Shown here: one piece after another, positions 11,101 to 27,568 of the stretch
Layout of the letters: every line of letters starts with the position of its first letter
Numbering within the stretch: position 1 is the stretch's first letter
NCBI GenBank assembly: GCA_963169855.1
Contig: CAUJCN010000001.1
Coordinates: 81,828-145,827, forward strand
DNA from: Patescibacteria group bacterium
GTDB lineage: Bacteria; Patescibacteriota; Dojkabacteria; J137
DNA length: 64,000 bases
Direction of reading: 5' to 3'
The notes under the pieces: model-generated
The model's input: only the letters and a program-made list of their open reading frames with translations
What the model was told of the DNA's origin: nothing
Database searches by the model: none
Translations under genes and position numbers: made by a program

Positions 11101-14100
11101 TGCTCTGGCCAAAAGCAGAAGAATTTGCTCCAGAAGCTGTAGTATCTAATCCAAAAGCTGCTGAGTTATCTCCAACATTGAAGTTGTCCCACTGACCCAT
11201 TGTAGCGGTTCCAGCTCTAAATGCTCCTCTACCAGGAGCCCAGTACATTCTAGTTGTAGAAGAGAATACTGTAGGAACAGCCATTCCATTTAAAGTACCT
11301 TCAAATAATACGTTACTAGGATCTCCCGCGCTCATCACATGTAATTTTTCTTGTGGTGCTGCAACTCCAATTCCAAAATTTCCCTGACCTGACCACCCGA
11401 TGCTGGATCCTGCCAAAGGTACTTCTGTATTAAATAGTAATGATGCATTTGTAGCCTCCGGAGATCCTACTGCGCCTCCTAGTCTAACTCTATCGGTGGC
11501 TGCATCTACTTGTAAACCATTATCAGCTAAAACATTTAATATTGGATTTGTAAGAGTACCTGTGTCACTGAGACCATCTCCAGCTGTTATCGAAATTATT
11601 CCTGCAGATCCTGTAGATCCAATTACATGCCAATTAGCACCATCAGAAATTAAAGTTACAGCATTCATATCATCCAAAGCATATGCTCCGGAAAGACCAT
11701 CTATTGTTTCTAAGCCCATAGGATTCACTCCCGAAGTAGATCCAGATTCATTTTTTATTGTATAGATTCGTCCTGCTAACCCGCCTGCTGATGGTAAATT
11801 CGCGCTTACTGCTGGACCTGTCAACACTACTGTTTGATTTAGCTCATCTAAGTTAATGCTTCCACCAGAAGAGTCTTCGTAGTTTACAGAGAAACTTCCA
11901 TTTGTACTCAAAGTTGAATGTGGAGTAGTGTTATTAAATCCTACACCCAATCTATTGTTAAGAGTATCTACAGATATTACTGTTGCAGTATCATCCTCTT
12001 TTCTAACTTGGAAAGCATCTGTTCGATTTACGCTATTTGAAACAAATATTGGTCTTGAATTTCCAACTGTTGTTACTCCAATCTGATAATCAGTAACCCC
12101 AATTCCTGGATCAGAGAACATTAATGCAATTGGATCGATTACTCCAGTTACTGTTAAATCTCCAGTTACTTGCAATCCCTTTGTACCAGTTAAACTTCCA
12201 CTATCAAAGGTTGGTAAGAACCCATTATTCGTAATTGTTGTATTGTGTAGTAGAGTACCACCCCATTCGATAAAGTCTCCAGAGAAACTCAAACCATTTT
12301 GAATCTGAGCATCTATTATTGGATCAACTCCAGTTCCAGAATTTACTAAACCTAACCCTGCTGTAACTGAATTAACTCCACCAGCTCCAAAACAATCAAA
12401 ATATGCTGCACCGTTTTCAGAACACTGGAAACCTCCTAATGCAGAGTTGAAGTACATTCTCCCTTCTCCTAGAACAGATAATGCTGGGTCTAACGTAACA
12501 CCCATCATAGAAAGACCTGAGTTACCAGTCAATCCAGTTGTACCTTGATCAATGCTAAGCAACGCTGTAGGGGCAGTAGAAAGTATTCCAACTCTTCCAT
12601 CTCCCATAACTGTCACCAACGGAGTTGGAATTCCAAATAAATCGTTCTCTATTTGGAAGACTTCGTCACTTGCACTAAGATTTTGCTTTGTTGCGAAATA
12701 AAATGCCTGTTCTACTCCTTGTCCAATGTTTCTATCAGAAAGAAATGCCATCCCACCAAAATTACCTGCAGTATTTGTTCCAAAGTTTGTTGTGTGTATA
12801 GTTGCTGAACCCGGCGATGCAAACCCTTGATTTAAAGAAGTATAATTTGCACCTGCTCCCAAAGTTCCTGTTGTTGATGTGATATTTAGACTTCCAGGGC
12901 CAAGTTCTAAGGAAGCCCATCTATTAGTTAGTGTTCCTAAATCAAATGTATTATCTACCTCAGGATCGAATCCTGTTGCAGTTATTCTTGCAATACTTAC
13001 AGCATTCCTAATAAATGTTTGATCAAAATTATCTAAAGTACCTAAAACACCGCTTGTACCAAATGAATTTCCATCCTGACAGAAAAAATCACCTGTAGGA
13101 TCACACGGAAGATTAGCTAAACTTGAGTTTACAGGATTACCACCTGCATCAAATCCAAGTAAGTTAGAAATCACCCCAACTGGAACTCCCACATTTGAAG
13201 AAACGCCGTTAACATTAGATGTAAATCCACCAGCAAGATTCAGGGAGAATACATTACTGTTTATTATAGTAGCAGTGTCCGATACACCATTAACTGTTGA
13301 AGTCATTGTGTTACCTAATGAGTCGAGAACATTTGTCGTTGCTCCAGATAGAAATGTACTCGCGTCCTTACTTAATAAGTTTCCTGCCGCATCAGTATAA
13401 AGAATATTAAGTACAGCCGGTGCATCATCTCTTGTATTTGGATAGCTACTCATTAAAATATTTCCATTGCCGAAAATTGTGAACCTATCAACACCACCAT
13501 TGTTTGCTGTAAAAATAGAAGTACCTATTGCAGTCTCGTTCCTTACTAACAATCCATTAGCACCTACGCCAGGTGTTCCGTTGTGGAATGTAGCAGTATA
13601 CCCTGGTGTGATTGGACCACCGATCTGCCAGAAAATTCCTACAGGATGTTGACCAACTCCACCTTGATCAGTAATACTACCTGATGCATTCGAAAGTAAA
13701 GTTGCGGGATTGTTGCTACCTATTCCAACATTTCCTCCAGCCATAACTCTCAATCTTTCTAGACCATTTGTTTCCAAAACCAAATCGTTGTTATCATTTG
13801 TTCCTAACGTACCCGTTGTACCAAAAAGGTTACCATCCTGACAGAAGAATGAACTAGTAGCAACGCAAGGAAGAGTAGAAAGATCAACAGTGTTGCTGGT
13901 TACACCATTAACAACACTCTCTAGATTTGAACCTACAAGATTTAAAACATTTGTATTTATTATGTCATCGAAACTTACAACACCATTCACTGTGCTTGTT
14001 GCAACATTCCCTGCTGTTGTGAATACATTAGTAGTATTTCCAGTTAAAATTGAAGCAATTGTTTCATTAACTGCTACTCCACCTGCATCAAAACCCAGAA

Positions 14101-15757
14101 CATTAACAATAGTTCCTCCTGCAATTGGTTGATTATCACTAACTCCGTTAACATCTGTCGTGAAGCCTGTTGCAAGATCCAAGTTAAAGTTAACTGAGTT
14201 AATAATATTTGCTGTATCTGAAATTCCGTTTACAGTTGAAGTCATTACATTACCTAGTGAGTCTAAAACATTAGTAGTTGCTCCACTTAGTACAGTAGCA
14301 ACTGACTGATTCGCTGGATTACCTCCTGCGTCATAACCTAGAAGATTAACAATTGTTCCTGCAGGAGTTGCTACAGTATCTGCCACGCCATTCACTGTTG
14401 AAGTGATTCCTCCAGCTTGAGTCCAAGTTAATGTATTAGTTGTATTTGCTGCCAAAATGCTACCAATTGTTTGATTTACACCATTTCCACCAGCATCGAA
14501 TCCAAACACATCAGTGATTGTTCCTGCTGGTATTGCCTGTGAAGATGCTATTCCATTTACTGTTGAAGTAAATCCTGTTGCTAAATCTACAGTTAAAACA
14601 TTTGAATTTATTATGTCGTCAAAACTTACAACACCATTTACTGTGCTTGTTGCAACATTTCCTGCTGTTGTAAAAACATTAGTAGTTGCTCCAGTTAAAA
14701 TTGAAGAAACTGTTTGATATGCTGGATTACCCAATGTATCGAAACCTAGTAGTTCAGTCAAAGTTCCTGCAGCTAAAGCTTCATTAGCAGCAACGCCATT
14801 TACTGTTGATGTAAATCCTGTAGTTCTATCAAGATTAAAAAGGTTTGTTAAGGGTAGAGCAGAGGTGTCAGTACAAGCCCAACTTACTCCGTTAAACATG
14901 TATACCTGATCTAAGGCACAGGCAGTTAGGCCATATGTGACTGTGTTTCCAGCTGTTGCAACTGAAATCGGACCAGTTGAAGCAAGGGTTATTGAAGGAC
15001 CAGTTTCACCATTAACATCTGTAATTCCTGCGCCTACAGCTGCTGGTAAACAAACAAATGCTGTTCCGTTCCAAGAAAGTCTTTCTGTTGGTAGACAGGT
15101 AGGAGCATTTACAGAAACTGTCCCTGTAGTTGTAATTGGGCCTCCAGTCAGACCGTTTCCAGTATTTATAAGTGTAACTCCTGTAGGTAAAGATACCGAG
15201 TTTCCGTTAGAAATCGATAGAATATTCCCAGCCAAACCTAATGTTTGGCTATCATTATCAACTCCACTCCCAGATCCTACTAAATCAGGTAAACAAACAA
15301 ATGCTGTTCCTGTCCATGATAACTTTTCATTGAAAGTACAGGCTGGAGAATCCACAGAAAATTGATTTGTTGTTAATTCTAGACCTTCACCTGATGTATA
15401 CGTATTGGATCCTCCTGTTCCTTCTGTGGAACATTCCCAAGTATTAGTAACTCCACTCCACCTTAATATTTCGTTAGTAGAACATACTTTGTTAAAACTA
15501 ACTGTATAACCGTTATTAACCTGATTAACTGTAATTAAATCTCCTCCTTGAACAGGTGATGAATTTCCGCCTGGATTTACTGTGGTATTACCAGTTGAAA
15601 ATGCTCCCCATCCTAAGAGAAGTATAAGGATAATAATTAAGACAAGGGTTACAACATACCAATTTCGTAGGAGTTTAAAGCGGTCGAGAGATACAAGTTC
15701 ATAAACACTGAACTTCTGCTTAGTAGGTTTTGTTACAGAATCATCTGAATGGTCCAT
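5159..15757 (-). CDS. Giant (3532 aa) type-II membrane-anchored surface fibre protein. It has Cys-pair modules, about 213-aa tandem modules, two roughly 1-kaa mega-repeats carrying YadA-head-like 14-residue 'NSTAFG' repeats, and a C-terminal phage tail-fibre intramolecular chaperone (peptidase S74-like) domain followed by a coiled coil and a terminal β domain.
   Basis: Single intact ORF. N-terminal 'WYVVTLVLIIILILLLGWGAF' TM anchor. Repeated 'xSTAFGxxTxAxGxx' 14-mers. C-terminal 'YKSNISDLNNGLDTVMGLRPVQF...LGFIAEEVNVVDPRLA...GVNYELMSAIL' matches the endosialidase chaperone (S74) signature, and a heptad-rich coiled coil follows. Confidence 0.85.
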   Translation of the reverse strand: MDHSDDSVTKPTKQKFSVYELVSLDRFKLLRNWYVVTLVLIIILILLLGWGAFSTGNTTVNPGGNSSPVQGGDLITVNQVNNGYTVSFNKVCSTNEILRWSGVTNTWECSTEGTGGSNTYTSGEGLELTTNQFSVDSPACTFNEKLSWTGTAFVCLPDLVGSGSGVDNDSQTLGLAGNILSISNGNSVSLPTGVTLINTGNGLTGGPITTTGTVSVNAPTCLPTERLSWNGTAFVCLPAAVGAGITDVNGETGPSITLASTGPISVATAGNTVTYGLTACALDQVYMFNGVSWACTDTSALPLTNLFNLDRTTGFTSTVNGVAANEALAAGTLTELLGFDTLGNPAYQTVSSILTGATTNVFTTAGNVATSTVNGVVSFDDIINSNVLTVDLATGFTSTVNGIASSQAIPAGTITDVFGFDAGGNGVNQTIGSILAANTTNTLTWTQAGGITSTVNGVADTVATPAGTIVNLLGYDAGGNPANQSVATVLSGATTNVLDSLGNVMTSTVNGISDTANIINSVNFNLDLATGFTTDVNGVSDNQPIAGGTIVNVLGFDAGGVAVNETIASILTGNTTNVFTTAGNVATSTVNGVVSFDDIINTNVLNLVGSNLESVVNGVTSNTVDLSTLPCVATSSFFCQDGNLFGTTGTLGTNDNNDLVLETNGLERLRVMAGGNVGIGSNNPATLLSNASGSITDQGGVGQHPVGIFWQIGGPITPGYTATFHNGTPGVGANGLLVRNETAIGTSIFTANNGGVDRFTIFGNGNILMSSYPNTRDDAPAVLNILYTDAAGNLLSKDASTFLSGATTNVLDSLGNTMTSTVNGVSDTATIINSNVFSLNLAGGFTSNVNGVSSNVGVPVGVISNLLGFDAGGNPVNSSLANLPCDPTGDFFCQDGNSFGTSGVLGTLDNFDQTFIRNAVSIARITATGFDPEVDNTFDLGTLTNRWASLELGPGSLNITSTTGTLGAGANYTSLNQGFASPGSATIHTTNFGTNTAGNFGGMAFLSDRNIGQGVEQAFYFATKQNLSASDEVFQIENDLFGIPTPLVTVMGDGRVGILSTAPTALLSIDQGTTGLTGNSGLSMMGVTLDPALSVLGEGRMYFNSALGGFQCSENGAAYFDCFGAGGVNSVTAGLGLVNSGTGVDPIIDAQIQNGLSFSGDFIEWGGTLLHNTTITNNGFLPTFDSGSLTGTKGLQVTGDLTVTGVIDPIALMFSDPGIGVTDYQIGVTTVGNSRPIFVSNSVNRTDAFQVRKEDDTATVISVDTLNNRLGVGFNNTTPHSTLSTNGSFSVNYEDSSGGSINLDELNQTVVLTGPAVSANLPSAGGLAGRIYTIKNESGSTSGVNPMGLETIDGLSGAYALDDMNAVTLISDGANWHVIGSTGSAGIISITAGDGLSDTGTLTNPILNVLADNGLQVDAATDRVRLGGAVGSPEATNASLLFNTEVPLAGSSIGWSGQGNFGIGVAAPQEKLHVMSAGDPSNVLFEGTLNGMAVPTVFSSTTRMYWAPGRGAFRAGTATMGQWDNFNVGDNSAAFGLDTTASGANSSAFGQSTSATAAGASAFGVNTTASGINSAAFGFNTQATNQGATAFGQNTQANGMNSIAAGNGTFAFGTNSIAFGQSSAVDMSSENTIAGGNTNVAIGASSNSALFGQSNNLNGASAAIVAGVGNTVSGATSFTIGEANTSTGQRGIVFGQNNTTVPTTNNSIVGGQGNNNVDAENSAVFGVTQTVSGQRVVVGGQFNQVNFSNDVAVFGQGNQVQNQGSITGGQANQNFSNFSLVGGMMNQVSGLQHFAAGQQNQIMMGSENAATWGFSNEVVNSYGTAFGNNNISSGTGATAFGQNTTAQGEYSTSFGQGNTASGNNSLAFGQNTQATSFGATSFGNNTQANGPFSVAAGTDNITGSISSIVYGSSNNIDMGSDSTLVGGNLNQSQTSVNSILSGQGNTMTGSNRSLGIGQGNSITGTDSITTGNTNTNGGQNSIVFGSSNTLMPFGVNTILGGSNNNNIGVNDGAIFGFNQMAAGARIVAGGQSHQIFGADDSAVFGQANQVTGQASLVSGSSNTVPAFYSLVGGSGNNIQGSTNFGAGNMNNINFNASSAGVWGFSNDVSADYATAFGNNNNATGIGSTSFGNTTSAFGSYATSLGVGTSAQGDGAIALGEGTIASGQNSFAGGFTSTASDREAFAFGQNAQASGTMSVAFGLQNISSGTASFVGGNNSQAMGDSSFAYGNVVQANANFATAFGNGATANGFSSIAMGSQVTAGGTVSIAMGDGATASGERAVAFGESTESQGFAQTTIGRFNTVSGNSLAFDQSDQAFIIGNGTSDFARNNAFSVGWDAKMTLYGGFAPAVSPFGAGSMYFDTLSNTFQCSENNGAWFSCFGGGSLVGGDGIDITGSTISALADNGLQVDPVADRIRLGGAVGSPEATNASLLFDTEVPLAGNSIGWSGIGNFGIGVADPQEKLHIISNGDPTNVLFEGNLSGDPVPAVFSSTTRMYWAPGRSAFRAGTANGFQWGDANVGDYSTAFGLDTTASGTGSMSWGQQNEATGQNSTAWGTGSFAQDINATAWGNTTVASGPGATSFGTQTQAQATNSIAFGFGTVANGDQSTSWGEDTLSSGISATAFGTQTQALGDNGTAFGQNSIVGFGSTNSTAFGTATEAGTSAPGVENALAFGNQTQAQDDQATAFGNQTSAQGLNSTAFGFSTQALNDNSTAFGDDTLAQGIGSTAFGFTTQALGEYATAFGRISNVGVNSLASTAFGTDTSAGVMTMNVANALAFGNQTQAEANQATAFGNQSQAYGINSTAFGLLTQSQGDQSTAWGENSVAQGTNSTAFGFTSEALGDTSTAFGRFTTVGSQSFASTAWGTSTLAGFFTANVDNATAFGFDTRAEADQATSFGYQTSASGDNSLAFGRGTQSMAEQSTAFGFQTVAQGTNSTAFGNGAQAIGSNNTAFGNLTQTRGLNSMAWGDQTNVDPGAVFENGTAFGANTLANASQATAFGLGNVADGQNSTTWGESNVASGVNSTVFGDENVVAPSATLSTAWGSQNIVTGMGNTVWGLQNVGTGPGATVFGIGNITGSGTDTTLSSFVSDTYVQTIMGSYAIRNGANASQTYTEAITDNEQIFIIGNGEDDLTRSTAFYVTWNGDVFFERELRANGNAGNIGDVLLSGGAGGAANWTDSEFTFWMLDGNQTDGLGGNYTLGTTVNNGIDFTTNLVARMSLNANGELDVSQLTNGGASTSYVCTDASGVIVVQAGVCNVSSERYKSNISDLNNGLDTVMGLRPVQFTKNSDGSRSLGFIAEEVNVVDPRLAFSRDGRIEGVNYELMSAILTDAVQTQEGRLQNVEVQVNENEGRVDAVEASLNTLSAVPTDLQGIRSTILDLQNTNVSIQQTINNIQSSLTIFQTHEARLVDVETRLASLEGTVSLLQGGSASIDLSNLSVGNLIASGNVRVLGKLNVSEDTAGVATIETGLTFVTVTFSTPFNTVPVVTASPIGRRVDYYVGNITETSFDIILDAALEVPVEFNWISLGR

Positions 15758-15911
15758 TCAACCAAAGTAAAACTAGCAATAGTGCAATTATTATATTTAG
15801 CAATATGATCGTAAATTTCCAGCCTTTTGATTCTTTCTTTTCAACATCAATTTGGACTTTGTCCGATGTTTTTTTGTCCGAATCCTTTTCTACAAGTGTA
15901 ATTTCCTGCAC
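15741..15911 (-). CDS. Small single-TM peptide (56 aa, GTG start), paralogue of the peptides upstream of the other two giant genes. It overlaps the giant-gene start.
   Basis: Translation '(M)QEITLVEKDSDKKTSDKVQIDVEKKESKGWKFTIILLNIIIALLLVLLWLNGPFR*' read from the minus strand. The C-terminal hydrophobic helix plus 'LNG' parallels P1/P2, which end in 'IING*'/'LING*'. The TGA stop lies 14 nt inside the 3532-aa ORF. No in-frame ATG is present, so the start is uncertain. Confidence 0.4.
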   Translation of the reverse strand: MQEITLVEKDSDKKTSDKVQIDVEKKESKGWKFTIILLNIIIALLLVLLWLNGPFR

Positions 15912-15966
15912 ATTTGAGCGTTAACTCTATACAGCATATACAAATTTTAAAACGAAATCAATAGTT

Positions 15967-16398
15967 TTATTCTGCGTCTCTGATTGCCGATAAAACCTTT
16001 GAGCTAGGGCTTAAATCTTCTATAAATAAGACTTTACTAAGATTTATGTCCATTCGATTTGAAGGTCCGTGAAGTTCGTCTCCCAACTTAATCAAATTGA
16101 TATCTGATGATGTAGATTCCGACTGATTAGAAAGATAGTAAACGTTTTTTAGAACTATGAAGTTTAAATCTGAAGAACCTTTATCTATTTTGCCGAAATA
16201 CACCTGCCCATTTTCTAGGAAAACTGCTTGGTATTCTGATTCGATTTTTAAATCTAAATTTTGGGAGCTATCTCTGTTTAAAAATAAAATTACTGAAAGT
16301 AAAATTGCTACAACACTAAGTCCTATTGCAATAACAGCTTTACTTTGGTCGACTCTCACTTCCTTTTTAATTTCAGTTTTTGAATTTAACGACAACAT
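15967..16398 (-). CDS. Hypothetical single-pass membrane protein (143 aa)
   Basis: An N-terminal charged segment is followed by the TM helix 'AVIAIGLSVVAILLSVILFL'. The ORF lies between giant genes. Confidence 0.5.
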   Translation of the reverse strand: MLSLNSKTEIKKEVRVDQSKAVIAIGLSVVAILLSVILFLNRDSSQNLDLKIESEYQAVFLENGQVYFGKIDKGSSDLNFIVLKNVYYLSNQSESTSSDINLIKLGDELHGPSNRMDINLSKVLFIEDLSPSSKVLSAIRDAE

Positions 16399-16442: not shown

Positions 16443-17123
16443 TTAAAACATGGTAAATGGAGAATAGAGAGAGAACACTAAACTATCGTCTTCAGGATCT
16501 TGCGATACTTTAAATAACGGATTAGCTACTATAGAAGTCATTTGATTTGTGATGTTCCAAAACTTTTCCAACTCTTCTCGTTTCAAAACACCTACATTTA
16601 CTCTAACATGCTGTGATCTGGGTAAATCCACTGATGATGAATGTCTGTCCGCAGGGTTGCAAGAATTAAAGTATATATACAAAAGTTTTTTGAGAATTTC
16701 ACTTATTTGAATAGGTATATCTTCAAAAAGATATTGAGATTTATCAATTCCATAGAAGACAGATTTTTTTGTACCTCTTGGATTAAAAGGTTCTGGTAGT
16801 ACAAATAAAAAAGGTATGCATATCTCATCGATTTCAAATTCTATAACGCATACTCTAATTGACCTCATCTGACCCTCTATGCTTATCTGAACCGTAGGGA
16901 CGAAATAAGAAAGATAATCATATTCATAAAATAATTTTTGGATAAAATCAGAAGGAAGGCCATCTTCGCTAAAAACAGACTGATCCTTCAGTTGAATATA
17001 GATAGTAGCTTTTGTTCTGTCAATTTCTAGCTTCCCCAAAGAATTTTCATGCGTGAATCTTACTCCTTTTGGATCAGTACTCGGCAGAATAAATCGATTA
17101 TAAGTTGTTTCTTCAGTTCCCAT
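16443..17123 (-). CDS. Hypothetical protein (226 aa)
   Basis: Intact ORF on the same strand as the fibre locus. No recognisable motif. Confidence 0.5.
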   Translation of the reverse strand: MGTEETTYNRFILPSTDPKGVRFTHENSLGKLEIDRTKATIYIQLKDQSVFSEDGLPSDFIQKLFYEYDYLSYFVPTVQISIEGQMRSIRVCVIEFEIDEICIPFLFVLPEPFNPRGTKKSVFYGIDKSQYLFEDIPIQISEILKKLLYIYFNSCNPADRHSSSVDLPRSQHVRVNVGVLKREELEKFWNITNQMTSIVANPLFKVSQDPEDDSLVFSLYSPFTMF

Positions 17124-17216: not shown

Positions 17217-17951
17217 TTAGTTGATACTAGTAGAATAACTTCCGCTAGATACAATTGCATTAGTTGATGGTCTGTAGATAATAATCAAAGACTTGCTTGC
17301 ATATGTACCAACAACATCTCCAGTTTGTAGATTTGCATAGAATGCTGCAGATCCGCTACTTTGTCTGAACAAATCAGCATCTGTTACCAATGAAACTTGA
17401 GGAACTTCGTCTTCATCTTGAGCAATTAATCCAGCTTCTTTTGACTTAGCAACAAACTGGTTTAAGATCGCCTGTTGAGATTTCTGAAGTAGAGTAGTTG
17501 GATTATCTCCATCATAAATAACTCTGTCTTCTCCTCCTCTATAAATTACCAATTTTGTTGAGTAAGCTAAAACATGGTCTCCATTCTGAGCATCTTTGTA
17601 AACTACTGCATTTGCTTCACTCTGTGATTTCAAATCTTCCACATTTGGTAAACTTCCATCTCCAATCACTGCCATTACAGGAATTTCTGTAGGTGGAACT
17701 TGCGTTAAACTTCCAACTCTATTTATTACTTTGACAGCATTAAACTGACTAAGTAAATTAATTGGGTTCACAATTACGAATAATGTTACAAGCTGTAATA
17801 CTACAATCGCAGCAAGTAAAAATTTCATATTGTATAAACTTTTTAAAATAGATAAACCCCCTCTTGATGAACCACCTGCAGAACTAGTAGTTGGCCTAGG
17901 TGCAGCGGGAGTAGACTTATCTAAGTTTAGTTTGACTGATCTTCCATTCAT
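17217..17951 (-). CDS. Hypothetical membrane-anchored/secreted protein (244 aa). An alternative start at M42 would give a signal peptide.
   Basis: An Ala/Pro/Ser-rich N-terminus is followed by 'MKFLLAAIVVLQLVTLFVIV' (TM or signal peptide). The ORF lies directly downstream of the 1760-aa giant gene. Confidence 0.5.
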   Translation of the reverse strand: MNGRSVKLNLDKSTPAAPRPTTSSAGGSSRGGLSILKSLYNMKFLLAAIVVLQLVTLFVIVNPINLLSQFNAVKVINRVGSLTQVPPTEIPVMAVIGDGSLPNVEDLKSQSEANAVVYKDAQNGDHVLAYSTKLVIYRGGEDRVIYDGDNPTTLLQKSQQAILNQFVAKSKEAGLIAQDEDEVPQVSLVTDADLFRQSSGSAAFYANLQTGDVVGTYASKSLIIIYRPSTNAIVSSGSYSTSIN

Positions 17952-17992: not shown

Positions 17993-20900
17993 CTATAAAG
18001 CTATCCAGTTAAATAAAATATCCGATGTTGATACTGGTTGTATTACAATATCAAAACCATTTTGATTTACATTTTCTATTCCATAGTATACAGCATTTAT
18101 TCCAACAGGTGTAATAGTTACTGATGGAATTTTTGTTAATGGAGTAGAGAAGTTTACACGAATTGAATTGTTGCCTCCCGCAATAGTAGCATTTCCACTT
18201 AGTGCCACCGGAATAGATTGAATCAGGTTTTCTAAATCGGAAATCCTTTGGTTTATTGCGGTTATATCAAATGAATTTGTTGCGAGTGAATCAATATCAT
18301 TTTTTATATTTGTTAGTGATGTATTCAAATCAGATGCCATAGTTTGTAACTCAGAAACATCAGTTCCGTCTAATTGTGTTTTTAGTTGATCGATCTCAGC
18401 TTGAATTCTAATATTATCTTCATTTAATTCTTGAATTGCTTTAACCAAGTAAGGGGTAAATCCGTTTACTTTAATTTGAAGATATCCGTCAGCTCCTACT
18501 TTAACTAAATCAGGTACAACCGATTGAACTTCTTGAGCAATAAATCCTAACTTCAATTCGTTCGAAGGATCGTTGTTCATATAGTAATTTCGCACCTGCA
18601 ATTGCGATATTGTGTCTAAAGCCGAAGTAGAGTAGTCAGAAATAGTATTTTTCAATCTCGAGTCCGAAGTACATCCAAATGAACCAAAAGCACCATCTGG
18701 TGCCACGGTACAAGTACCCGAACTATTTTCAAAAGTAGCTACTGTGGATAAAGCAGGGTCTAGGAAATCTCCAACATGTAATTGACTTGTAGGCGACACA
18801 TTATGTATACCAACGTTCCCATTTATTCCGTTAACAAACACATGTACAGTATTATTTGTACCCAAAGTTAATGGATATGTAGCCATGGTGTTTACATTAA
18901 ACGACTCAGTTCCTCCAAGCGATCCGTTTAAAGTAGAGTTTGCTTGAATAAAACCAATTCCTGCATTGTTATTTGAGAACATCATCGATGAGGCCGCGTT
19001 TAGTCCTGAATTGTTGTTTCTAAATTCTACAAACCCTTGCGCATCTACATCTTGCTCAACTACAAACATATAGTTTGGTCCTGAAGTTCCTATTCCTACA
19101 TTTCCATTATTTGCTATTCGCATTCTTTCTTGTCCATTTGTGAAGAATACTGTAGAAAACGCAGCAGAACCAAGTGTTAAGCTGCCTGCAGAATCGATAG
19201 TTATGTCGTTATTAGTAGTGATCAGCGATGCGTAATCTCGTGCGTTTAAAAACAAGTTTCCTGAAAGTGTGTTTACTGAAAGATCTCCGTTAGAATTAAG
19301 TTCGTTATTTATTGTGCCCGTAAAGTCTAACATGCTACGGCCAACGTCTGTCCACAAATCAAAGCCAGCCGATGTGGCATTGTCGTGAATATTTAGAGCG
19401 ACTACAGGTCCACCAGTTACAGTTTGAATTCTCACGGCTCCTGAATCTGCTAAAATTGTTCTTCCAACACCTGGTCCTCCAAAATCGTATGAATCATCCA
19501 AAGTTCCACCGCCAATTCCTAACCATCCATTCGTTGAAAAATCCTGTGTCTTCACATACAAATGTTCTCTATTTGTTACACCATCAATTCTAAAAAACAA
19601 ACTTCCGCTATTTGCCAAATGAACACCCTCTGGGTCTCCAATTCCAACTAGCTGATCTATGGTATTGGCACCTGTTCCAGATAACCTGAGTGTTCCTGGT
19701 CCAGATGTATTTGTAACATTCATTATTGAAGAACCTGCACTAGATCCTATTACAAATGTATTGACACCTTGTTGTCTGAATATCGTACCAGTATCGTTAG
19801 AAAGCAATATCTCATCGGTTACTCCTTGGTATGTAAGGTTAGCAAAGTTTGTATTAGGCATATCTAGAAATCTTATTCCACCACCGTTTGGTGAAGTAAT
19901 TAATTCAAAACCCGAGCCATTAGTATTGTACCCTTGAATAATGTTTTGATTACTCACAATATTTTGAGTTGACACAAGTAGAGCTTCATTTACACCATTA
20001 ATTTCTACAGCTCCAGAATCAACAGTTATTATTCTACCTGCACCAGGTCCACCAAAATCGTATGCATCATCTAAAGTTCCTCCTGCTCCAGCACCGAGAG
20101 CCACCCACCCATTAACACTTGCATCTGTTGTTTTTACGTATAGTTGTTGACTGCCTCCAACTCCATCCATTCGAAAGAATACACTTCCGCTATTCGCAAG
20201 GATGCCTCCTTCTGGATCTCCCGTACCAATTAACTGATCTACAAAAGCAGCACCTCCTGTAGTTCCTAATCTTAAAATCGTAGGATAAAATGGCCCATTA
20301 CTATTAATTGTTAGAACAGGATCGTTCGCCAAGCCAGCCGTTGACTGTATTATTGTACTATTGCCAGTCATTCTAAAAACGTTATTAGCCTGATTTGTTA
20401 TAGAGAAGTTATCAAAAGAACCATCGTATACGGTTCGAGCGACGTTAGCTCCAAAACTATCAGAGAACCATAGACCTCCGCCGTTTACGTAGGTTTGCAA
20501 AGCAAATCCGGATCCATTTGGGTTTGAAGCTGTAAAAATGTCTTGATTACTAGCATTGTTTTGCGTTGTTGCGTGTATAGCATTTGATGTTGCATTAAGC
20601 TCAACAACTCCCGAATCTACATCAATAATTCTCCCTGCCCCTGCGCCTCCAAAATCGTATGCATCATCCAGAGTTCCTCCAGATCCTCCTGAACCCAACG
20701 CTACCCAACCGGTATTGAAGCCATTATTTGTAGTTTTTACATACAGTTGTTCGTTCGCCCCACCATCAGTTCGCATGTAAATACTTCCTTGGTAACCAAA
20801 TAGAACATTTTCTGGTGTACCAGCACCAGAATAGATCTCAGTTGTACCACCATTATTATTGAAGTTCATAAAGGAATTTTGAGTTTGACCAGCATTTGTA

Positions 20901-23275
20901 ATCTGTAGTATTCCGTCATGTTGTAAAGAGTTGCTTAAATACTGAAGGTTGTTTCCTTGATTAAACATTGTCCAACCAGCACCAGTTATACCGTTCCTTA
21001 ACGAGAAATTATCCACGATTCCTTGGAAATACATATCGTAATAATTTGCTGCACCGTTGAACAATTCAGAGGCAAATGTCAATCTGACTCCATCAGAATC
21101 ATCTCTTATTAAGAACGAATTATTTGTACCTCCTGTTTGTGTATAGAAGAGAGTATCTGAAAATGCTCCTGCAGCGTTTAAGAATCCCGGGCCAGAAGAA
21201 GTAAGTCTCAAACCTTGCACATCTACTTGTAAGTCGTTTCCAGCAGCTGGGCCACCGAAGTTATATGCATCTTGCAGAGTGCCACCACCACCTCCTCCAC
21301 CTCCTAGCTGTACCCAACCAGTGTTAGTTCCTGCTCCAGTTTCTTTAACCCACATCGGCATAGCACCAGATCCAGAAACATCGTAGTAAACACTACCCAT
21401 AAATCCGTCCACAATTCCATTCGGATCTCCATTGCCGACATTGTGAGTCATTGATCCAAAACTATTTCCCATCGAAACAACTCCATAAGGATTGGTTACA
21501 TCATTGTTTTGAATGAATACGGAACCAGTTGTAGATGTTGTAGCAGATGCGCTAATGCCAGTCTGAGCTGTTGAGTAAAAGTTAAGTGACGATGTTGGTC
21601 CTGAAGCAGTAAGACTAACACTAAACGGATCAAAAGATAATGTTCCGAAATCTGAACCTCCTCCGTCTGAAAGTCCTATATTAAAGAATTCGTTTCCTGG
21701 AGAGTCTGCAAAGATTTGATATCCGAATGTTGTAGAAGTGAAATTATTCACATCTACTGAATAAATCATTCCAGTTCCTGTAAATGGACCAAAATCCAGT
21801 CTACCCATAGATACGCCAGCCCCTGCTGTGTTAATTCCAACCCCATCTCCAACAACACTGAATGCTGGGTCATATCCAAAAGGAACAGCGCCTATTGAAT
21901 CTATTAATTCTACGGAACCTGAATCTGTAAATATTGTTCGTCCAGCACCTGGGCCTCCAAAATCGTATGCATCATCAAGAGTTCCACCAGATCCACCTCC
22001 TGCTCCAAGAGCTACCCAACCAGTGTTACTACCATCAGTTGTTTTAACGTACAATTGCTGAGAACCACCGACTCCATCAGTTCTAAAGAAAACGCTTCCA
22101 CTATCTGCATTCTCTACACCTTCCGGATCACCAGTACCAACCAATTGTGTAATTCCACTTCCAGTAGCTGGGTCTAATGATAATACTCTTGATGGATTAG
22201 CCATATTTTGATTTTGTATCAAAACAGCACCTGCGTTTGACTGAGCCTGACCTCTAATTCTTACAGTATCGTTTACAGAAGTTATGAATAAATCCTGATC
22301 TGATTGAATATCCATACCACTTCCGTTTTCAGATTGTATCTGCATTAATCCATTCATCATGAGAATGTTTCCATATCTTGTAGCCCCATCAGAAAATCCT
22401 AATTGGTAAAATTCAGCACCTGGGAATGCAGAGAAAGAATTAAATCCGTAATATCCGTTTGTGAAATTGTTTACATCATCGGCAAACAGTAAGATACTTC
22501 CATCATCACCACCTTGAACATCCATTTTTGCCATCGCAATACCGTTCAGGCTTGAATTGTTTACTGTACCATCTCCGACAATTACAAAAGAAGGATCGTA
22601 TCCTGCAAATCCTCCTGTCTTAACATCGGTAAACTGCACAGCTCCTGCATCTGTAGTAACAATTCTACCTGCTCCTGGACCACCAAAGTCATATGCATCA
22701 TCCAATGTTCCACCTCCGGCAACAGAAACACATGATAATACTGTACCATTCCACGAAAGAGTTTCTCCTAATGCACAGGTAGGAGCATTCAAAGAAATTA
22801 CTCCAGTAGTTGTAATCGTTCCGCCATTCAATCCGTTACCAGCCGTAATACTTGTAATTCCAGAAGAGCCTCCAACTGGTAGGTTTACAGTATTACCGTT
22901 TGTAATTCCTAAAGTATTACCTAATATGTAAAGAGTTTGCTGATCGTCATCATTCGTCGGGTTAGTTGGTGTAGTGGTTCCAGTTACTTCGTCTACACAA
23001 ACAAAGTTCGAACCATCCCATTGAAGTTTATCTGTCGCTTGGTTACAAACGGGAGCACTTAGGGATATAGTTCCTGTAGTTGTAATCGTACCTCCACTTA
23101 ACCCAGCACCTGTTTGAATTCTAATATTTGTACCTCCACTGTTTGATAGATCACCGATTTGATTTGTTAAGTTAGAACGAAGAGAACCTAATACTAATAC
23201 AATTATTAGCGTGATTATTCCAAAACCTAAAATGAACCATTTATTAATACCTATTTGGTTTTCGACATTATCCAT
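17993..23275 (-). CDS. Giant (1760 aa) type-II membrane-anchored surface fibre protein with six 'GGTLDDAYDFGGPGAGR'-initiated modules and a C-terminal peptidase S74-like intramolecular chaperone domain
   Basis: N-terminal 'WFILGFGIITLIIVLVLGSL' TM helix. Two Cys-pair modules ('SAPVCNQATDKLQWDGSNFVCVD'). Six repeats each end in '...GS(V/L)FFR(T/M)DG..QLYVKT.D...GWV.LG'. C-terminal 'TSDSRLKNTISDY...LKLGFIAQEVQSVVPDLV' chaperone signature followed by a coiled coil and a β domain. Confidence 0.85.
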   Translation of the reverse strand: MDNVENQIGINKWFILGFGIITLIIVLVLGSLRSNLTNQIGDLSNSGGTNIRIQTGAGLSGGTITTTGTISLSAPVCNQATDKLQWDGSNFVCVDEVTGTTTPTNPTNDDDQQTLYILGNTLGITNGNTVNLPVGGSSGITSITAGNGLNGGTITTTGVISLNAPTCALGETLSWNGTVLSCVSVAGGGTLDDAYDFGGPGAGRIVTTDAGAVQFTDVKTGGFAGYDPSFVIVGDGTVNNSSLNGIAMAKMDVQGGDDGSILLFADDVNNFTNGYYGFNSFSAFPGAEFYQLGFSDGATRYGNILMMNGLMQIQSENGSGMDIQSDQDLFITSVNDTVRIRGQAQSNAGAVLIQNQNMANPSRVLSLDPATGSGITQLVGTGDPEGVENADSGSVFFRTDGVGGSQQLYVKTTDGSNTGWVALGAGGGSGGTLDDAYDFGGPGAGRTIFTDSGSVELIDSIGAVPFGYDPAFSVVGDGVGINTAGAGVSMGRLDFGPFTGTGMIYSVDVNNFTSTTFGYQIFADSPGNEFFNIGLSDGGGSDFGTLSFDPFSVSLTASGPTSSLNFYSTAQTGISASATTSTTGSVFIQNNDVTNPYGVVSMGNSFGSMTHNVGNGDPNGIVDGFMGSVYYDVSGSGAMPMWVKETGAGTNTGWVQLGGGGGGGGTLQDAYNFGGPAAGNDLQVDVQGLRLTSSGPGFLNAAGAFSDTLFYTQTGGTNNSFLIRDDSDGVRLTFASELFNGAANYYDMYFQGIVDNFSLRNGITGAGWTMFNQGNNLQYLSNSLQHDGILQITNAGQTQNSFMNFNNNGGTTEIYSGAGTPENVLFGYQGSIYMRTDGGANEQLYVKTTNNGFNTGWVALGSGGSGGTLDDAYDFGGAGAGRIIDVDSGVVELNATSNAIHATTQNNASNQDIFTASNPNGSGFALQTYVNGGGLWFSDSFGANVARTVYDGSFDNFSITNQANNVFRMTGNSTIIQSTAGLANDPVLTINSNGPFYPTILRLGTTGGAAFVDQLIGTGDPEGGILANSGSVFFRMDGVGGSQQLYVKTTDASVNGWVALGAGAGGTLDDAYDFGGPGAGRIITVDSGAVEINGVNEALLVSTQNIVSNQNIIQGYNTNGSGFELITSPNGGGIRFLDMPNTNFANLTYQGVTDEILLSNDTGTIFRQQGVNTFVIGSSAGSSIMNVTNTSGPGTLRLSGTGANTIDQLVGIGDPEGVHLANSGSLFFRIDGVTNREHLYVKTQDFSTNGWLGIGGGTLDDSYDFGGPGVGRTILADSGAVRIQTVTGGPVVALNIHDNATSAGFDLWTDVGRSMLDFTGTINNELNSNGDLSVNTLSGNLFLNARDYASLITTNNDITIDSAGSLTLGSAAFSTVFFTNGQERMRIANNGNVGIGTSGPNYMFVVEQDVDAQGFVEFRNNNSGLNAASSMMFSNNNAGIGFIQANSTLNGSLGGTESFNVNTMATYPLTLGTNNTVHVFVNGINGNVGIHNVSPTSQLHVGDFLDPALSTVATFENSSGTCTVAPDGAFGSFGCTSDSRLKNTISDYSTSALDTISQLQVRNYYMNNDPSNELKLGFIAQEVQSVVPDLVKVGADGYLQIKVNGFTPYLVKAIQELNEDNIRIQAEIDQLKTQLDGTDVSELQTMASDLNTSLTNIKNDIDSLATNSFDITAINQRISDLENLIQSIPVALSGNATIAGGNNSIRVNFSTPLTKIPSVTITPVGINAVYYGIENVNQNGFDIVIQPVSTSDILFNWIAL

Positions 23276-23396
23276 TAATTAGAAACAGTAATAAGGCCAA
23301 AGCAGAAATGATAAGAATCAATGTAATTCCAACATTTACAATTGAGTAGTTCTTAGACTCTACATCGTATTGCTCATCTTGTTTTTTTGAGGCCAT
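23268..23396 (-). CDS. Small single-TM peptide P2 (42 aa), translationally coupled to the 1760-aa giant gene
   Basis: Minus-strand reading 'MASKKQDEQYDVESKNYSIVNVGITLILIISALALLLFLING*'. The stop codon TAA sits inside AATGGATAATG, overlapping the giant-gene ATG out of frame. It is below the ORF-track length cut-off. Confidence 0.5.
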   Translation of the reverse strand: MASKKQDEQYDVESKNYSIVNVGITLILIISALALLLFLING

Positions 23397-23472
23397 GATA
23401 AATAAAAATAAGTTAGTGCTATTACAATATAGAGAAAATAAAGGGACATTTCAAGAGATATTTGGGAGAATT

Positions 23473-26400
23473 TTAGAGTGTAGCAAAAGCCATCCAGTTA
23501 AAGTCTATGTCAGTTACAGCAGCAGAAAATAGTTTGATCTTAAAACCGAAAGCCGTAACCTCATCAATAAAGTATTCTCCAACTGAAGTATTTGAAGCCA
23601 AAGTTGCAGTAACTATTGGAGCAGAAGTGAGTGGTTTACTAAAAGTTACAGCAATTTCAGATGTTCCACCTAGTATCTTTACTTTTCCGATATTGTTTGC
23701 TGAGAATGTAACTTGGTCTTTAAAATTTACAACTCCAGCAAAAGAAGCACTTAAAAATTCAGAAGTTTCTGCAATCTCTGTTTCTATATTTTCGCTTTCT
23801 AATTCAATTTCCTCTAACCCAGGATACTCTATATTACTTAAAATTTGAGATTTAAATTCTTCATAACTTAATTTGAAATCGTTTAGTTGAGATGTTAAAT
23901 CCGCAAGATTCTGATTAATCCCAGATACATTAACTTCGTTATCATTTTCTGGGAGTGAACCTAACTCTTCCAATTTAGTCTCGATATCTGAAATTACTTT
24001 TTGTTGTTCTTGGATGGAATTTGTTAGTAGAGCAGAGATCAACTCATAGTTAACTCCTTCGATTTCTCCGTTTCGTGAGAATGCCAATCTTGAATCAACT
24101 ACTGCAACTTCCTCCGCAATGAATCCTAGACTTGGAGTTCCCGTAGGATCGAATATAAAACTAACAGGTCTCAAATTCATAAGTTCTTCTAATCCAATTT
24201 CCAAATCCTGAACATCTGATTTATATTTACCAGAAGAAACATTACATACACCGGCTTGAGCTATCATTCTTCCACTCGCATCTAAACATAAATACTGCGT
24301 AGAAGGATTTACAGAACTTACCATACCAGTTAGGTCTATATTCCTTGATTGATGAATTCTAATAACATTTGTACCTGCAATTTGGAAGAACACATCTCCA
24401 TCAACAATACTACCGTCTCCTGATGTTATAACCACGGCTCCTCCAATGCTAGCTGCTGAGCCTCCTGCCGCTATGCTAATATTACCTCCCTGACTTGCTG
24501 ATCCAGCACCTGCTTGTAGCGTAATACCTCCTCCAATTCCTGTACCGCTAGCACTACCCCCCTGCACAAAGAATTCACCTGCAGTACCATTTACAGAAGC
24601 ACCTAGATTAAAGAATGCACCTCCTCCAGTTCCTGTCACATCTGCAGAACCTCCATTGTATGTAAATCGACCAGCAGAATCACTTGAACCTACGGAACCT
24701 CCTCCTGTATTTAATGTTATGTCCCCTCCAGCACCTGCACCTGCTATACCCCCATTTCCAGTATTAATATTTATTCCACCAGCATTTCCTACAGAGTTAG
24801 CTGTTCCAGTAGCAATTGTAATTGTTCCAGAACCAGTATTACCGTTCCCTGTATACATGTTAATATTTCCGGATCCATTAGCTACAGCCGCTGATCCTGT
24901 AGCCATGTTTAAGTCACCTGGAGTTCCAGAGAATGATGAACCTGTTGAGATATTAACGCTTCCCGCTAAACCAACTGTTGCACTACCCCCGTTTATATTT
25001 ACATTTCCTCCTCCCCCCGGTGTGAAAGTGTTATTGTTTCCTCCATTGATATTGACTGTCGCAGCCTGAGAAACCGAAGTATCTGTTCCACCTAATTGAA
25101 TTGATGCACTACTTAGTCCTCCTGCCGAGAAAGATGAGTTAATACTTACATCGCCTCCAGAATTTTGTGTTGAACCAAACAATTGAATACTCGCTGACCC
25201 AATGGTCGAAGATGTATTAATACCTGCCGAAAGCCAAACATTACCGTTTGTTGCAAACGGGTTACTCGATTGACCTCCATTAATATTTATATTTCCTCCA
25301 CTGTATGAAGCACCTGCCGTTAGATTAACATTTCCAGCTGTACCTAAGGCATTTCCAGCGTTGGAAGAATAAATATTTACGCTACCACTGAGCATATCCG
25401 CAAAGCCTGTACTTATATTTACTGTGCCACTAGAACCTGTTCCAGCAGATGAACCTGTTGAGATCGATATCTGACCTGAGTTTCCATTACTAAGTCCATT
25501 CGCAGAACCTGTAGACATAAATATATCCCCAGTCTGGTTTCCGGAAACTCCATTTGCACCGGTATAGATACTTACACTACCACCATCCCCTGAACCATCT
25601 CCGTTACCAGAACCTAAAGCTGCGCTCCTACCACTCCCATTAGAACCAACTAATGCCTCACCCCCATTGACTACAATTCCAGATGCCGATACGAATAAAG
25701 TACCGTAAATATCAGTAGTTGATGAGCCTGCTCCAACAACCATTATATTATTTCCTCCACCTGCATCAGCATACTGAAGGAAACCGTATCCAGGTGTTGT
25801 TGTAAAGTTATCTATATCATTAGAGAATAGAAATGCTGTTGCCTCCGCCCCAGGGAAAGCAGGGTTTATATTTCTAACTATCCCAACTCCAGCTGTCTGT
25901 GAGAAACCTGGTGCCGAACCATCTCCAACAACTTTAAATGCAATTCTTTCATTAAGTGGCACGTTTGCCGAAGGAGATGTTCTTAATTCAACAGCACCTT
26001 GATCCAGATTAATTATTCGGCCAGCTCCTGGACCACCAAAATCATAAGCGTCATCCAAAGTTCCGCCGCCTCCTCCAACGTCCCCAATCGGAACCCATTG
26101 ATTATTATTTACCCCTGCAGTTCCAATATTTGCCCATAATACATTAGCACCTGTTACACCTGTCTGAGAAGCAACATATAAAGATCCCGCATAACCATCG
26201 ACAAATCCATTAGGATCGAGTTCACCTCCTGCAGTAAATTTAATACATCCATAAACTGGAACAGATGGTGCACACAAGTCTAAAATATCATACCCAGATG
26301 TAGATGCACCTATAAGTCTTATTGGCGAGTTACCTGGATCTGTATTCGTACTTCCACCGTAAATGTAAACTTGTTCAATAGCCTGCAAACTAAAATTATT

Positions 26401-27387
26401 ATTTGTCGATAACCCTAATGGTCCACCCGAAGATAAGTTGGTTTCCCCTGAATCAGAAAATTCTAATGCAGATACATTATTAAATGGGGAATCAGCTATT
26501 CCTATTACAAATACATCGTTTAGAGGGTTGATTGGATCATGTTGATATATAAGTGAACCTTGTGACCCAGAAGTATATGTTGATGCATCGGGTCCAAATA
26601 CCTGAATGTAAGCTTCTCCCCCTGGGAAAGTTAAGTTCGTGAAGCCTATACCAGATCCTGCTGTCGTTGTAGTTCCATCTCCTAAAATTTCAAAATCATT
26701 AGCCACTGTTGGGAATATTGTTCCTTGTGTAATAATAGATACAGCTCCAGCGTCAGCAAAAATAGTTCTTCCTACCCCTGGTCCACCAAAATCATACGCA
26801 TCATCCAGAGTTCCACCTCCTGCTGTAGAAATACATGATAGAACTGATCCATTCCATGTTAGTGTTTCGCCAAATGCACAAGCTGGTGCGTTTAGAGCAA
26901 TAGTACCAGTTGTTGTTATCACACCTCCCGATAGTCCAGCCCCTGCTGTAATACTTGTAATACCTGAGGTTCCACCTATTGGAATTGTGACTGTGTTTCC
27001 ATTTGAAATTGTTAAATTTCCTCCTGAATAGAATAGAGTCTGATTGTCAGTCCCTGTAGTAGTAGTAGTTGATGTACTACCAGTGATTTCATCAACACAA
27101 ATAAATGAAGTTCCGTTCCATTGAAGTTTATCGTTTGTTTGATTACAAATTGGTGCGTTTAAAGAAATTGTTCCAGTGTTTGTGATCGTTCCTCCCGACA
27201 AACCAACTCCTGTTTGAATTTGAACATCATTTGATTGGGGAGGAATTGAAATATTATTTAAGTCAGTAGCTATCTTTCCTCTAAAAGAAGACAGCGACAA
27301 AATAACAACAACTACAATTATTCCAGTTATCAAGATGAACCATTTGTTTAATCCAATCTGATTTTGTTGTTCCTCAAGTTTATCCAT
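23473..27387 (-). CDS. Giant (1304 aa) type-II membrane-anchored surface fibre protein with a Gly-rich 'GxxNIxTG' repeat region and a C-terminal peptidase S74-like intramolecular chaperone domain
   Basis: N-terminal 'WFILITGIIVVVVILSLSSF' TM helix. Cys-pair modules and two to three 'GGTLDDAYDFGGPGxGR' modules. A Gly/Ser/Asn-rich repeat region of about 280 aa. C-terminal 'YKSDVQDLEIGLEELMNLRPVSF...LGFIAEEVAVVDSRLA...GVNYELISALL' followed by a coiled coil and a terminal β domain. Confidence 0.85.
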   Translation of the reverse strand: MDKLEEQQNQIGLNKWFILITGIIVVVVILSLSSFRGKIATDLNNISIPPQSNDVQIQTGVGLSGGTITNTGTISLNAPICNQTNDKLQWNGTSFICVDEITGSTSTTTTTGTDNQTLFYSGGNLTISNGNTVTIPIGGTSGITSITAGAGLSGGVITTTGTIALNAPACAFGETLTWNGSVLSCISTAGGGTLDDAYDFGGPGVGRTIFADAGAVSIITQGTIFPTVANDFEILGDGTTTTAGSGIGFTNLTFPGGEAYIQVFGPDASTYTSGSQGSLIYQHDPINPLNDVFVIGIADSPFNNVSALEFSDSGETNLSSGGPLGLSTNNNFSLQAIEQVYIYGGSTNTDPGNSPIRLIGASTSGYDILDLCAPSVPVYGCIKFTAGGELDPNGFVDGYAGSLYVASQTGVTGANVLWANIGTAGVNNNQWVPIGDVGGGGGTLDDAYDFGGPGAGRIINLDQGAVELRTSPSANVPLNERIAFKVVGDGSAPGFSQTAGVGIVRNINPAFPGAEATAFLFSNDIDNFTTTPGYGFLQYADAGGGNNIMVVGAGSSTTDIYGTLFVSASGIVVNGGEALVGSNGSGRSAALGSGNGDGSGDGGSVSIYTGANGVSGNQTGDIFMSTGSANGLSNGNSGQISISTGSSAGTGSSGTVNISTGFADMLSGSVNIYSSNAGNALGTAGNVNLTAGASYSGGNININGGQSSNPFATNGNVWLSAGINTSSTIGSASIQLFGSTQNSGGDVSINSSFSAGGLSSASIQLGGTDTSVSQAATVNINGGNNNTFTPGGGGNVNINGGSATVGLAGSVNISTGSSFSGTPGDLNMATGSAAVANGSGNINMYTGNGNTGSGTITIATGTANSVGNAGGININTGNGGIAGAGAGGDITLNTGGGSVGSSDSAGRFTYNGGSADVTGTGGGAFFNLGASVNGTAGEFFVQGGSASGTGIGGGITLQAGAGSASQGGNISIAAGGSAASIGGAVVITSGDGSIVDGDVFFQIAGTNVIRIHQSRNIDLTGMVSSVNPSTQYLCLDASGRMIAQAGVCNVSSGKYKSDVQDLEIGLEELMNLRPVSFIFDPTGTPSLGFIAEEVAVVDSRLAFSRNGEIEGVNYELISALLTNSIQEQQKVISDIETKLEELGSLPENDNEVNVSGINQNLADLTSQLNDFKLSYEEFKSQILSNIEYPGLEEIELESENIETEIAETSEFLSASFAGVVNFKDQVTFSANNIGKVKILGGTSEIAVTFSKPLTSAPIVTATLASNTSVGEYFIDEVTAFGFKIKLFSAAVTDIDFNWMAFATL

Positions 27388-27517
27388 TAATTATAAACAA
27401 TATTAGTAGTATTGCCGAAATGACTAAAACCAGAATTACAGCAGTATTTATTACTGAGAAATTTGAAGACTCATCATAGATTGGAGTAGCTTCTTTTGCA
27501 GTTTTTTGTAGTGCCAT
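27380..27517 (-). CDS. Small single-TM peptide P1 (45 aa), translationally coupled to the 1304-aa giant gene
   Basis: Minus-strand reading 'MALQKTAKEATPIYDESSNFSVINTAVILVLVISAILLILFIING*'. TAA overlaps the ATGGATAA start of the giant gene. It is a paralogue of P2. Confidence 0.5.
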   Translation of the reverse strand: MALQKTAKEATPIYDESSNFSVINTAVILVLVISAILLILFIING

Positions 27518-27539: not shown

Positions 27540-27568
27540 ACTATAGTAATTTTTTATCCATCTTGCAA
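27540..27568 (-). promoter_or_regulatory. σ70-like promoter candidate for the P1/giant-fibre transcription unit
   Basis: On the minus strand: TTGCAA, a 17-nt spacer, then TATAGT, about 25 nt upstream of the P1 ATG. Confidence 0.35.

Follow-up and report, generated by a model that had tools for sequence, protein, structure and literature searches.

Operon-encoded single-transmembrane (TM) proteins such as KdpF, CydX and AcrZ serve as accessory subunits of membrane complexes (PMC12648545; CydX, PMC4325964), and trimeric fibrous adhesins are co-encoded with accessory proteins in the SadB-SadA and TpgA-AtaA pairs (PMC3953254, PMC12523085). Here we analysed a 64,000-nucleotide (nt) stretch of DNA from a Patescibacteria group bacterium of the Dojkabacteria (GenBank assembly GCA_963169855.1, contig CAUJCN010000001.1, positions 81,828 to 145,827), hereafter the window, in which each of three giant fibre genes (G1, G2 and G3) is overlapped at its start by a small gene (P1, P2 and P3, respectively) for a peptide of 41-56 amino acids (aa) with one predicted TM helix. 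We found that the peptides are the products of real, conserved genes that are specific to the giants and have been co-duplicated with them. It is very probable that these genes are also co-expressed with the giants.

The pairing is specific. Among the 46 genes of the window, an overlapping upstream open reading frame (ORF) of fewer than 60 aa with a strong hydrophobic helix (maximum hydropathy of the peptide helices, 3.0-3.3) precedes all three giants, and none of the 43 other genes offers a clear case. We further built a profile hidden Markov model (HMM) from seven peptides and ran it on all stop-to-stop segments of the window and of 46 fetched loci; it matched only the positions of P1, P2 and P3 in the window and their orthologues in the loci. 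An original prediction on this DNA had described P1 and P2, with their strand, coordinates, translations and a TAA stop inside a sequence that also holds the giant ATG, and every one of these details agrees exactly with our reading. The module of peptide gene plus giant Peptidase_S74-domain gene, which it took to be repeated, is present at all three giants, the third peptide gene, P3, lying before the 3532-aa gene.

In all three peptides a short polar N-terminus, which starts with MA or MQ and has an acidic motif ([DE]-x-E-[SKL]-[KS]-x), leads into a helix of ~20 residues; the helix carries Ser or Ala, a small residue, in its middle, and a C-terminal [LIV]NG follows. P1 and P2 are identical at 20 of 41 positions, and in both the TAA lies within AATGGATAA, so placed that the peptide gene overlaps the giant ATG (of G1 for P1 and of G2 for P2) by 8 nt; the overlap of P3 with the ATG of G3 is 17 nt. 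In all three modules AAT GGN (Asn-Gly) is the peptide frame read across the ATG G of the giant. The TM helix ends 2 residues before the stop in P1 and P2 and 5 residues before it in P3, whose start codon is GTG in the window copy and ATG in the orthologues.

Among called proteins, a profile search returned P1 itself and P0002, a 56-aa orthologue of P3 from a related species (species B), whose contigs carrying P0002 (L003-L012) have the same gene order. An uncalled orthologue of P2 is found on L003 at 1765..1893; it encodes 42 aa, with a MA start and the same AATGGATAA overlap as in the window, and is identical to P2 at 25 of 42 residues, with proportions of nonsynonymous (pN) and synonymous (pS) differences of 0.26 and 0.74 and with 15, 9 and 23 differences at the first, second and third codon positions. 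From a search for neighbours of the HemW gene we obtained species C (L040), with an orthologue of P1 (MAERKTTQQELELKDFRPLNMAIGVVIVVSVILLVLFLVNG, then stop; pN 0.35 and pS 0.79 against P1) that ends in a TGA within AATGGTTGA and is followed by a giant starting MVDQ. P0129, a 56-aa P3 orthologue from species D, came out of an exhaustive profile search through 1.84 billion representative proteins; it is encoded on an NCBI metagenome-assembled genome (MAG) contig, L044, that also holds P2. Between P3 and its orthologues pN/pS is 0.14-0.24, and the differences at the three codon positions are 11, 5 and 23.

Taken together, the length, start and overlap of the peptides are the same in the orthologues of species B, C and D, and the peptides show pS of 0.53-0.79 (near saturation), pN of 0.08-0.35 and pN/pS of 0.14-0.44, ranges that omit the paralogues P1 and P2 of the window (0.54) and the comparison of species B with species D at P2 (too few changes). 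The giants' own membrane anchors, compared over residues 1-45, give pS of 0.60-0.77, pN of 0.13-0.29 and pN/pS of 0.18-0.43, the same range as the peptides. The ORFs are thus kept in orthologous loci with nonsynonymous change far below synonymous change (dN << dS) and with differences biased towards third positions, rather than being lost or evolving at a dN/dS near 1, which points to purifying selection and bears out the earlier view of them as real paralogous genes and not chance ORFs.

At the P3/G3 junction the 19-nt sequence AATGGACCATTCAGATGAT is invariant in three species, with flanks that vary freely, as would be expected if selection acts on both reading frames (dual coding). P1 and P2 accompany giants with the N-terminus MD..NQIG[LI]NKWFIL, and P3 accompanies one with MDHSDD..RNWYVV; peptide type and giant N-terminus therefore diverge in parallel, and the module duplicates and evolves as a unit. 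We also observed that divergence between L003 and L044 (species B and D) is a mosaic: in the P2 region pS is 0.07 and the protein is identical, and over P3 and the start of G3 (L003 9260 onward) pS is 0.53-0.75. The pattern points to recombination, or to a G3 module that turns over rapidly.

The peptide genes had also been described as unannotated. This holds for P2, for which we found no called gene on record, but not for the others, since P1 is called in a Logan assembly and orthologues of P3 are called in NCBI, JGI, ENA and Logan. What is called in place of P2 is an antisense ORF of 45-51 aa (L003 1728..1871 and L044 1701..1844, both minus; window 23395..23532, plus), which lies upstream of P2 in the window and overlaps P2 in species B and D; because its position is not conserved, it is most likely an artefact. 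The ORF of P1 can be extended to 27535 (51 aa) from an in-frame ATG further upstream. We preferred the 45-aa form because this additional ATG lies only 4 nt past the predicted -10 box and is missing from the orthologue. The coordinates of the peptide genes, the giants and their promoters are collected in Table 1.

Table 1 Peptide genes, giant genes and promoter-like sites of the three modules in the window
Feature	Coordinates	Strand	Description
P1 peptide gene	27380..27517	minus	45 aa, MALQKTAKEATPIYDESSNFSVINTAVILVLVISAILLILFIING, then stop; polar N-terminus, one C-terminal TM helix, ING before the stop
P2 peptide gene	23268..23396	minus	42 aa, MASKKQDEQYDVESKNYSIVNVGITLILIISALALLLFLING, then stop; P1 paralogue
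P3 peptide gene	15741..15911	minus	56 aa, GTG start; C-terminus LNGPFR, then stop
G1 giant	23473..27387	minus	1304 aa; N-terminal TM anchor at ~residues 16-35; C-terminal Peptidase_S74
G2 giant	17993..23275	minus	1760 aa; N-terminal TM anchor, C-terminal Peptidase_S74, coiled coil, H-lectin-like end
G3 giant	5159..15757	minus	3532 aa; N-terminal TM anchor at ~residues 35-52, YadA_head repeats, C-terminal Peptidase_S74
Sigma-70-like promoter of P1-G1	27540..27568	minus	TTGCAA-17-TATAGT; 5' untranslated region ~16-22 nt, no Shine-Dalgarno motif
Sigma-70-like promoter of P2-G2	23426..23454	minus	TTGAAA-17-TATATT
Weaker promoter-like site of P3-G3	15933..15961	minus	TTGATT-17-TATGCT; below scan threshold (8 of 12)

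All three giants carry the Peptidase_S74 domain (PF13884) near the C-terminus, with scores of 24.7 bits (G1), 51.9 bits (G2) and about 35-39.3 bits (G3) at a gathering cut-off of 22 bits, and this region matches the solved tail-fibre chains PDB 8jov and 6f45. Their N-termini each consist of a short polar stretch followed by one TM helix, and we read the giants as N-terminally membrane-anchored fibres. No in-frame ATG, GTG or TTG other than the overlap ATG lies before the hydrophobic helix of the giants, so the overlap ATG must be the giant start. In G3 a Pfam scan revealed many YadA_head repeats (247 bits) and no YadA_anchor; it has the N-terminal TM helix instead, and does not classify as a trimeric autotransporter adhesin. 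The giants are presumably trimeric, given the S74 intramolecular-chaperone domain and, in G3, the YadA-head repeats, and by analogy the S74 domain implies trimerisation with autocleavage. Past this domain each of the three giants continues into a coiled coil and ends in an H-type-lectin-like stretch that scores below threshold (...FNWI[AS]L; 5159..6208, 17993..19042 and 23473..24522), and autocleavage would free this part. It is likely that the fibres mediate attachment.

The predicted promoters lie 16-25 nt upstream of the peptide starts and recur in the relatives. That of P1-G1 reads TTGCAA-17-TATTAT in L040, with TAATAT as the -10 box in L041, and that of P2-G2 reads TTGAAG-17-TATATT in L003 and TTGATC-17-TATATT in L044; the site upstream of P3-G3 is kept in L003 and L044. 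With a conserved promoter just upstream, the peptide gene therefore comes first in a transcription unit that it shares with the giant. Shine-Dalgarno (SD)-like tetramers (AGGA or GAGG) are rare: they stand before only 3 of the 47 larger genes, and neither the peptide genes nor the giants have one. The stop and start of each pair overlap and the giant has no independent ribosome-binding site, a geometry which is indeed that of translationally coupled genes, as had been proposed. Because the giant ATG lies inside the peptide ORF and no SD stands before the giant, coupling by termination and reinitiation is plausible and appears to be the simplest reading. Many gene starts in the window lie 10-25 nt past a TATAAT-like box (e.g. 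61178..63331 and 45026..46927), suggesting short-leader, SD-independent initiation across the genome.

On balance we lean towards a reading in which the peptide is a translationally coupled small membrane protein that acts with the fibre anchor, either as a co-anchor or as an insertion/stability partner. From each promoter, the peptide and the giant would be transcribed as a two-gene unit; ribosomes ending the peptide would most likely re-initiate on the giant, and both proteins would be made from one mRNA at a linked rate. The ribosomal tunnel holds ~30-40 residues. Since the peptide is too short for co-translational targeting, with its helix still inside the exit tunnel at termination, the released peptide would be expected to insert post-translationally, much like a tail-anchored protein, and it would then pack against the TM anchor of the fibre as its dedicated co-anchor or insertion/stability partner. 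Taken by itself, the claim that the peptide is the membrane partner of the fibre anchor is one we put forward tentatively. A more specific form of it, which we regard as rather unlikely, is a split helical hairpin, in which three peptides and three fibre helices would make a six-helix bundle per trimer and the anchor would be an obligate two-chain structure. If such a two-chain anchor is real, inserting fibres of 1300-3500 residues into the membrane, orienting them or holding them there mechanically would depend on the peptide.

Several observations weigh against the membrane-partner reading. The relatives compared amount to only three or four species, all closely related. Stop/start overlaps are also frequent at other junctions of the genome, so the junction alone is not special, and the flanking charges of P1 and P2 indicate no clear topology. 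The mRNA folding values at the starts of G2 and G3 are -7.7 and -8.8, and that of G1 is -2.6, compared with a mean of -5.0 (standard deviation 2.5); start structure is thus only marginally stronger than at other starts and does not by itself point to a need for coupling. Moreover, roughly a dozen distant homologues of the fibres, complete at the N-terminus and equipped with TM anchors, have no upstream peptide. It follows from these homologues that the peptide is specific to the lineage and that fibres of this class do not generally need it, and the proposal in the original prediction of an obligatory partner does not hold for the class as a whole.

How does the membrane-partner reading compare with other explanations? 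The idea that the peptides are chance ORFs in an AT-rich, U-rich leader can draw on our own estimate that a 42-codon open frame is ~4% likely at this base composition, and on the fact that gene finders missed P2. It is nevertheless refuted: different species have kept the same ORF length, start, stop and overlap although their synonymous divergence is saturated, substitutions follow a pattern across codon positions, and one such ORF occurs at each of the three giants and not at other genes. A cis-acting upstream ORF (uORF), which would only load ribosomes or open the mRNA and whose product would be functionless, is a stronger candidate, although still an unlikely one. The genome is almost without SD motifs, the giant ATG is embedded in the peptide ORF, and the start regions of G2 and G3 are slightly more structured than average, all of which would suit such an element. 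However, the constraint acts at the amino-acid level (pN/pS within the range given above), and saturated synonymous sites stand beside a TM helix, an acidic motif and a C-terminal NG that have been retained. Ribosome loading requires neither a TM helix nor a fixed length, and most other genes of the window start without any uORF of this kind.

The peptide and the giant might also be parts of a single protein, joined by a programmed +1 frameshift at the peptide stop or derived from a recently split gene, with a two-helix hairpin as anchor. The giant frame is indeed +1 relative to the peptide, and some distant homologues have two (L028, L037) or three (L014, L026) N-terminal TM helices in a single polypeptide, with loops similar in length to the distance from the peptide end to the giant TM helix. 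We consider this improbable, because the ATG is kept in 8 of 8 modules and overlap and stop vary among them (8 nt with TAA, 8 nt with TGA, 17 nt with TGA), and because there is no slippery or re-pairing codon, GGA to GAU not re-pairing. A fusion would also put the fibre and the charged N-tail on one side of the membrane and the acidic loop towards the cytoplasm, and the peptide HMM has no similarity to any giant N-terminus (<=6.5 bits). The multi-helix homologues are compatible with peptide and giant as a two-chain anchor, homology between the two arrangements being unsupported by sequence. Even less probable, in our judgement, is a monitoring substrate of the MifM, SecM or VemP type, which would stall until inserted and so tune giant translation to insertion capacity. 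Here, too, a small membrane-protein ORF directly precedes a gene whose product needs insertion or export, and the extreme C-terminus is conserved. To be exposed during the stall, the targeting element would have to precede a C-terminal arrest site by 30-40 residues or more, whereas the TM helix of the peptides ends 2-5 residues before the stop, so that it is still in the tunnel at termination and cannot be sensed; there is no SD and hence no SD-sequestering hairpin to open, and the conservation of NG is partly forced by the overlapping ATG-G. Among these explanations, a membrane protein working with the fibre anchor is the one we favour.

The family appears to be confined to one narrow lineage, outside of which the exhaustive profile search found no member. 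In Pfam-A and NCBIfam the peptides have no family, their best matches reaching 10-20 bits against cut-offs of 23-100 and reflecting TM composition (YniD and YoaK included). A metagenome scan gave 27 distant fibre loci, none of them with an upstream small TM ORF or a match to the peptide HMM, and a scan of viral contigs found no relatives. In a protein search with the N-terminal profile of the giants, repeat words dominated the outcome: six short fragments without relation to the giants came back, and the query proteins themselves were missed. The single locus returned by a contig scan with the alignment of the giants' N-termini, L002 from a Saccharibacteria MAG, was rejected, being an internal fibre fragment with no N-terminus. 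At another locus, L018 (1372..1678), the N-terminal TM helix is out of frame with the rest of the fibre, the shift falling in a Thr/Asn/Asp simple repeat; its relative L017 (2108 onward) is uninterrupted, and the break in L018 is either an assembly error or a slippage-prone repeat. Our literature searches turned up no account of small TM peptides that accompany S74 or giant fibres.

The window itself is a piece of bacterial chromosome of ~35% G+C, with the housekeeping genes EF-G, TypA, Mfd, CysRS, MetRS and HemW. Its ORFs end in TAA (29), TAG (11) and TGA (6). An alternative code with TGA as a sense codon was rejected, since TGA ends 6 of 46 ORFs and the long frames of the giants are uninterrupted. 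Sampling of the lineage is sparse: for HemW, the relatives in species B and C reach 72% identity and no other exceeds 48%, the named matches being Clostridia at 36-41%, and synteny is lost in the 48% relative. No Rfam family was found in the module leaders, the sole match in the window being one tRNA.

Between G2 and P3 lie three conserved genes on the minus strand (15967..16398, 16443..17123 and 17217..17951; 143, 226 and 244 aa) without family match; the products of 143 and 244 aa each carry a single TM helix at the N-terminus. Their order is kept in species B and D, and for this reason they may be part of the fibre locus. Elsewhere, a moderately hydrophobic 56-aa ORF overlaps by 4 nt the listed TTG start of the gene at 43241..44152 (minus). 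Probably that start is mis-set; the ORF may also be another small gene. We also rejected the idea that P2 is an immunity-type gene for the upstream G1, because no giant lies upstream of P1, because P2 overlaps G2 and has a promoter to itself, and because the giant C-termini are S74/lectin-like and not toxins.

Small membrane proteins are routinely missed in annotation, and in this locus one of three is absent from all gene calls, with an antisense artefact called in the relatives. What is new is a conserved family, absent from the curated libraries searched, that stands one-to-one with giant surface fibres of an uncultured lineage. If the peptide is necessary for fibre anchoring or synthesis, it would offer a compact handle on the way in which a membrane takes up and retains very long proteins that have a single-helix anchor, and it would also show operon translation in bacteria without SD sites. 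A dedicated small-protein co-anchor for giant surface fibres, if that is what the peptides are, has not been previously described. No current view is overturned by these modules.

Among known systems, MifM, SecM and VemP resemble the modules in that a small secretory or membrane ORF lies upstream and, in those systems, controls translation of the next gene. Their TM or signal segment is N-terminal and their arrest motif C-terminal, whereas the peptides described here have a C-terminal TM helix and no SD hairpin. Phage tail fibres and endosialidases share with G1-G3 the C-terminal Peptidase_S74 intramolecular chaperone; unlike them, the giants are chromosomal, lie among housekeeping genes and are anchored by an N-terminal TM helix, and phages have downstream assembly chaperones rather than upstream TM peptides.

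By context, the closest analogy would be an accessory gene upstream of a trimeric adhesin, such as SadB-SadA (PMC3953254). In that system and in TpgA-AtaA, a small accessory gene stands directly upstream, in one operon, of a giant trimeric fibre with YadA-type head repeats, and the membrane-attached accessory assists fibre display. The giants of the window differ in having an N-terminal TM helix and a C-terminal S74 domain and no YadA_anchor beta-barrel, and there is no homology between the two kinds of accessory. SadB is much larger, a periplasmic trimeric lipoprotein of Gram-negative type Vc secretion. By kind, the peptides are closest to the operon-encoded single-TM accessory subunits, again by analogy only. 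Like KdpF, CydX and AcrZ, they are shorter than 60 aa, have one TM helix with a conserved helix in an otherwise plastic sequence, are encoded in the same operon as the membrane partner and are often missed by gene callers. They have no sequence similarity to these subunits and carry the helix at the extreme C-terminus, and the partner with which they are presumed to associate is neither an enzyme nor a transporter but the single TM helix that anchors a giant fibre.

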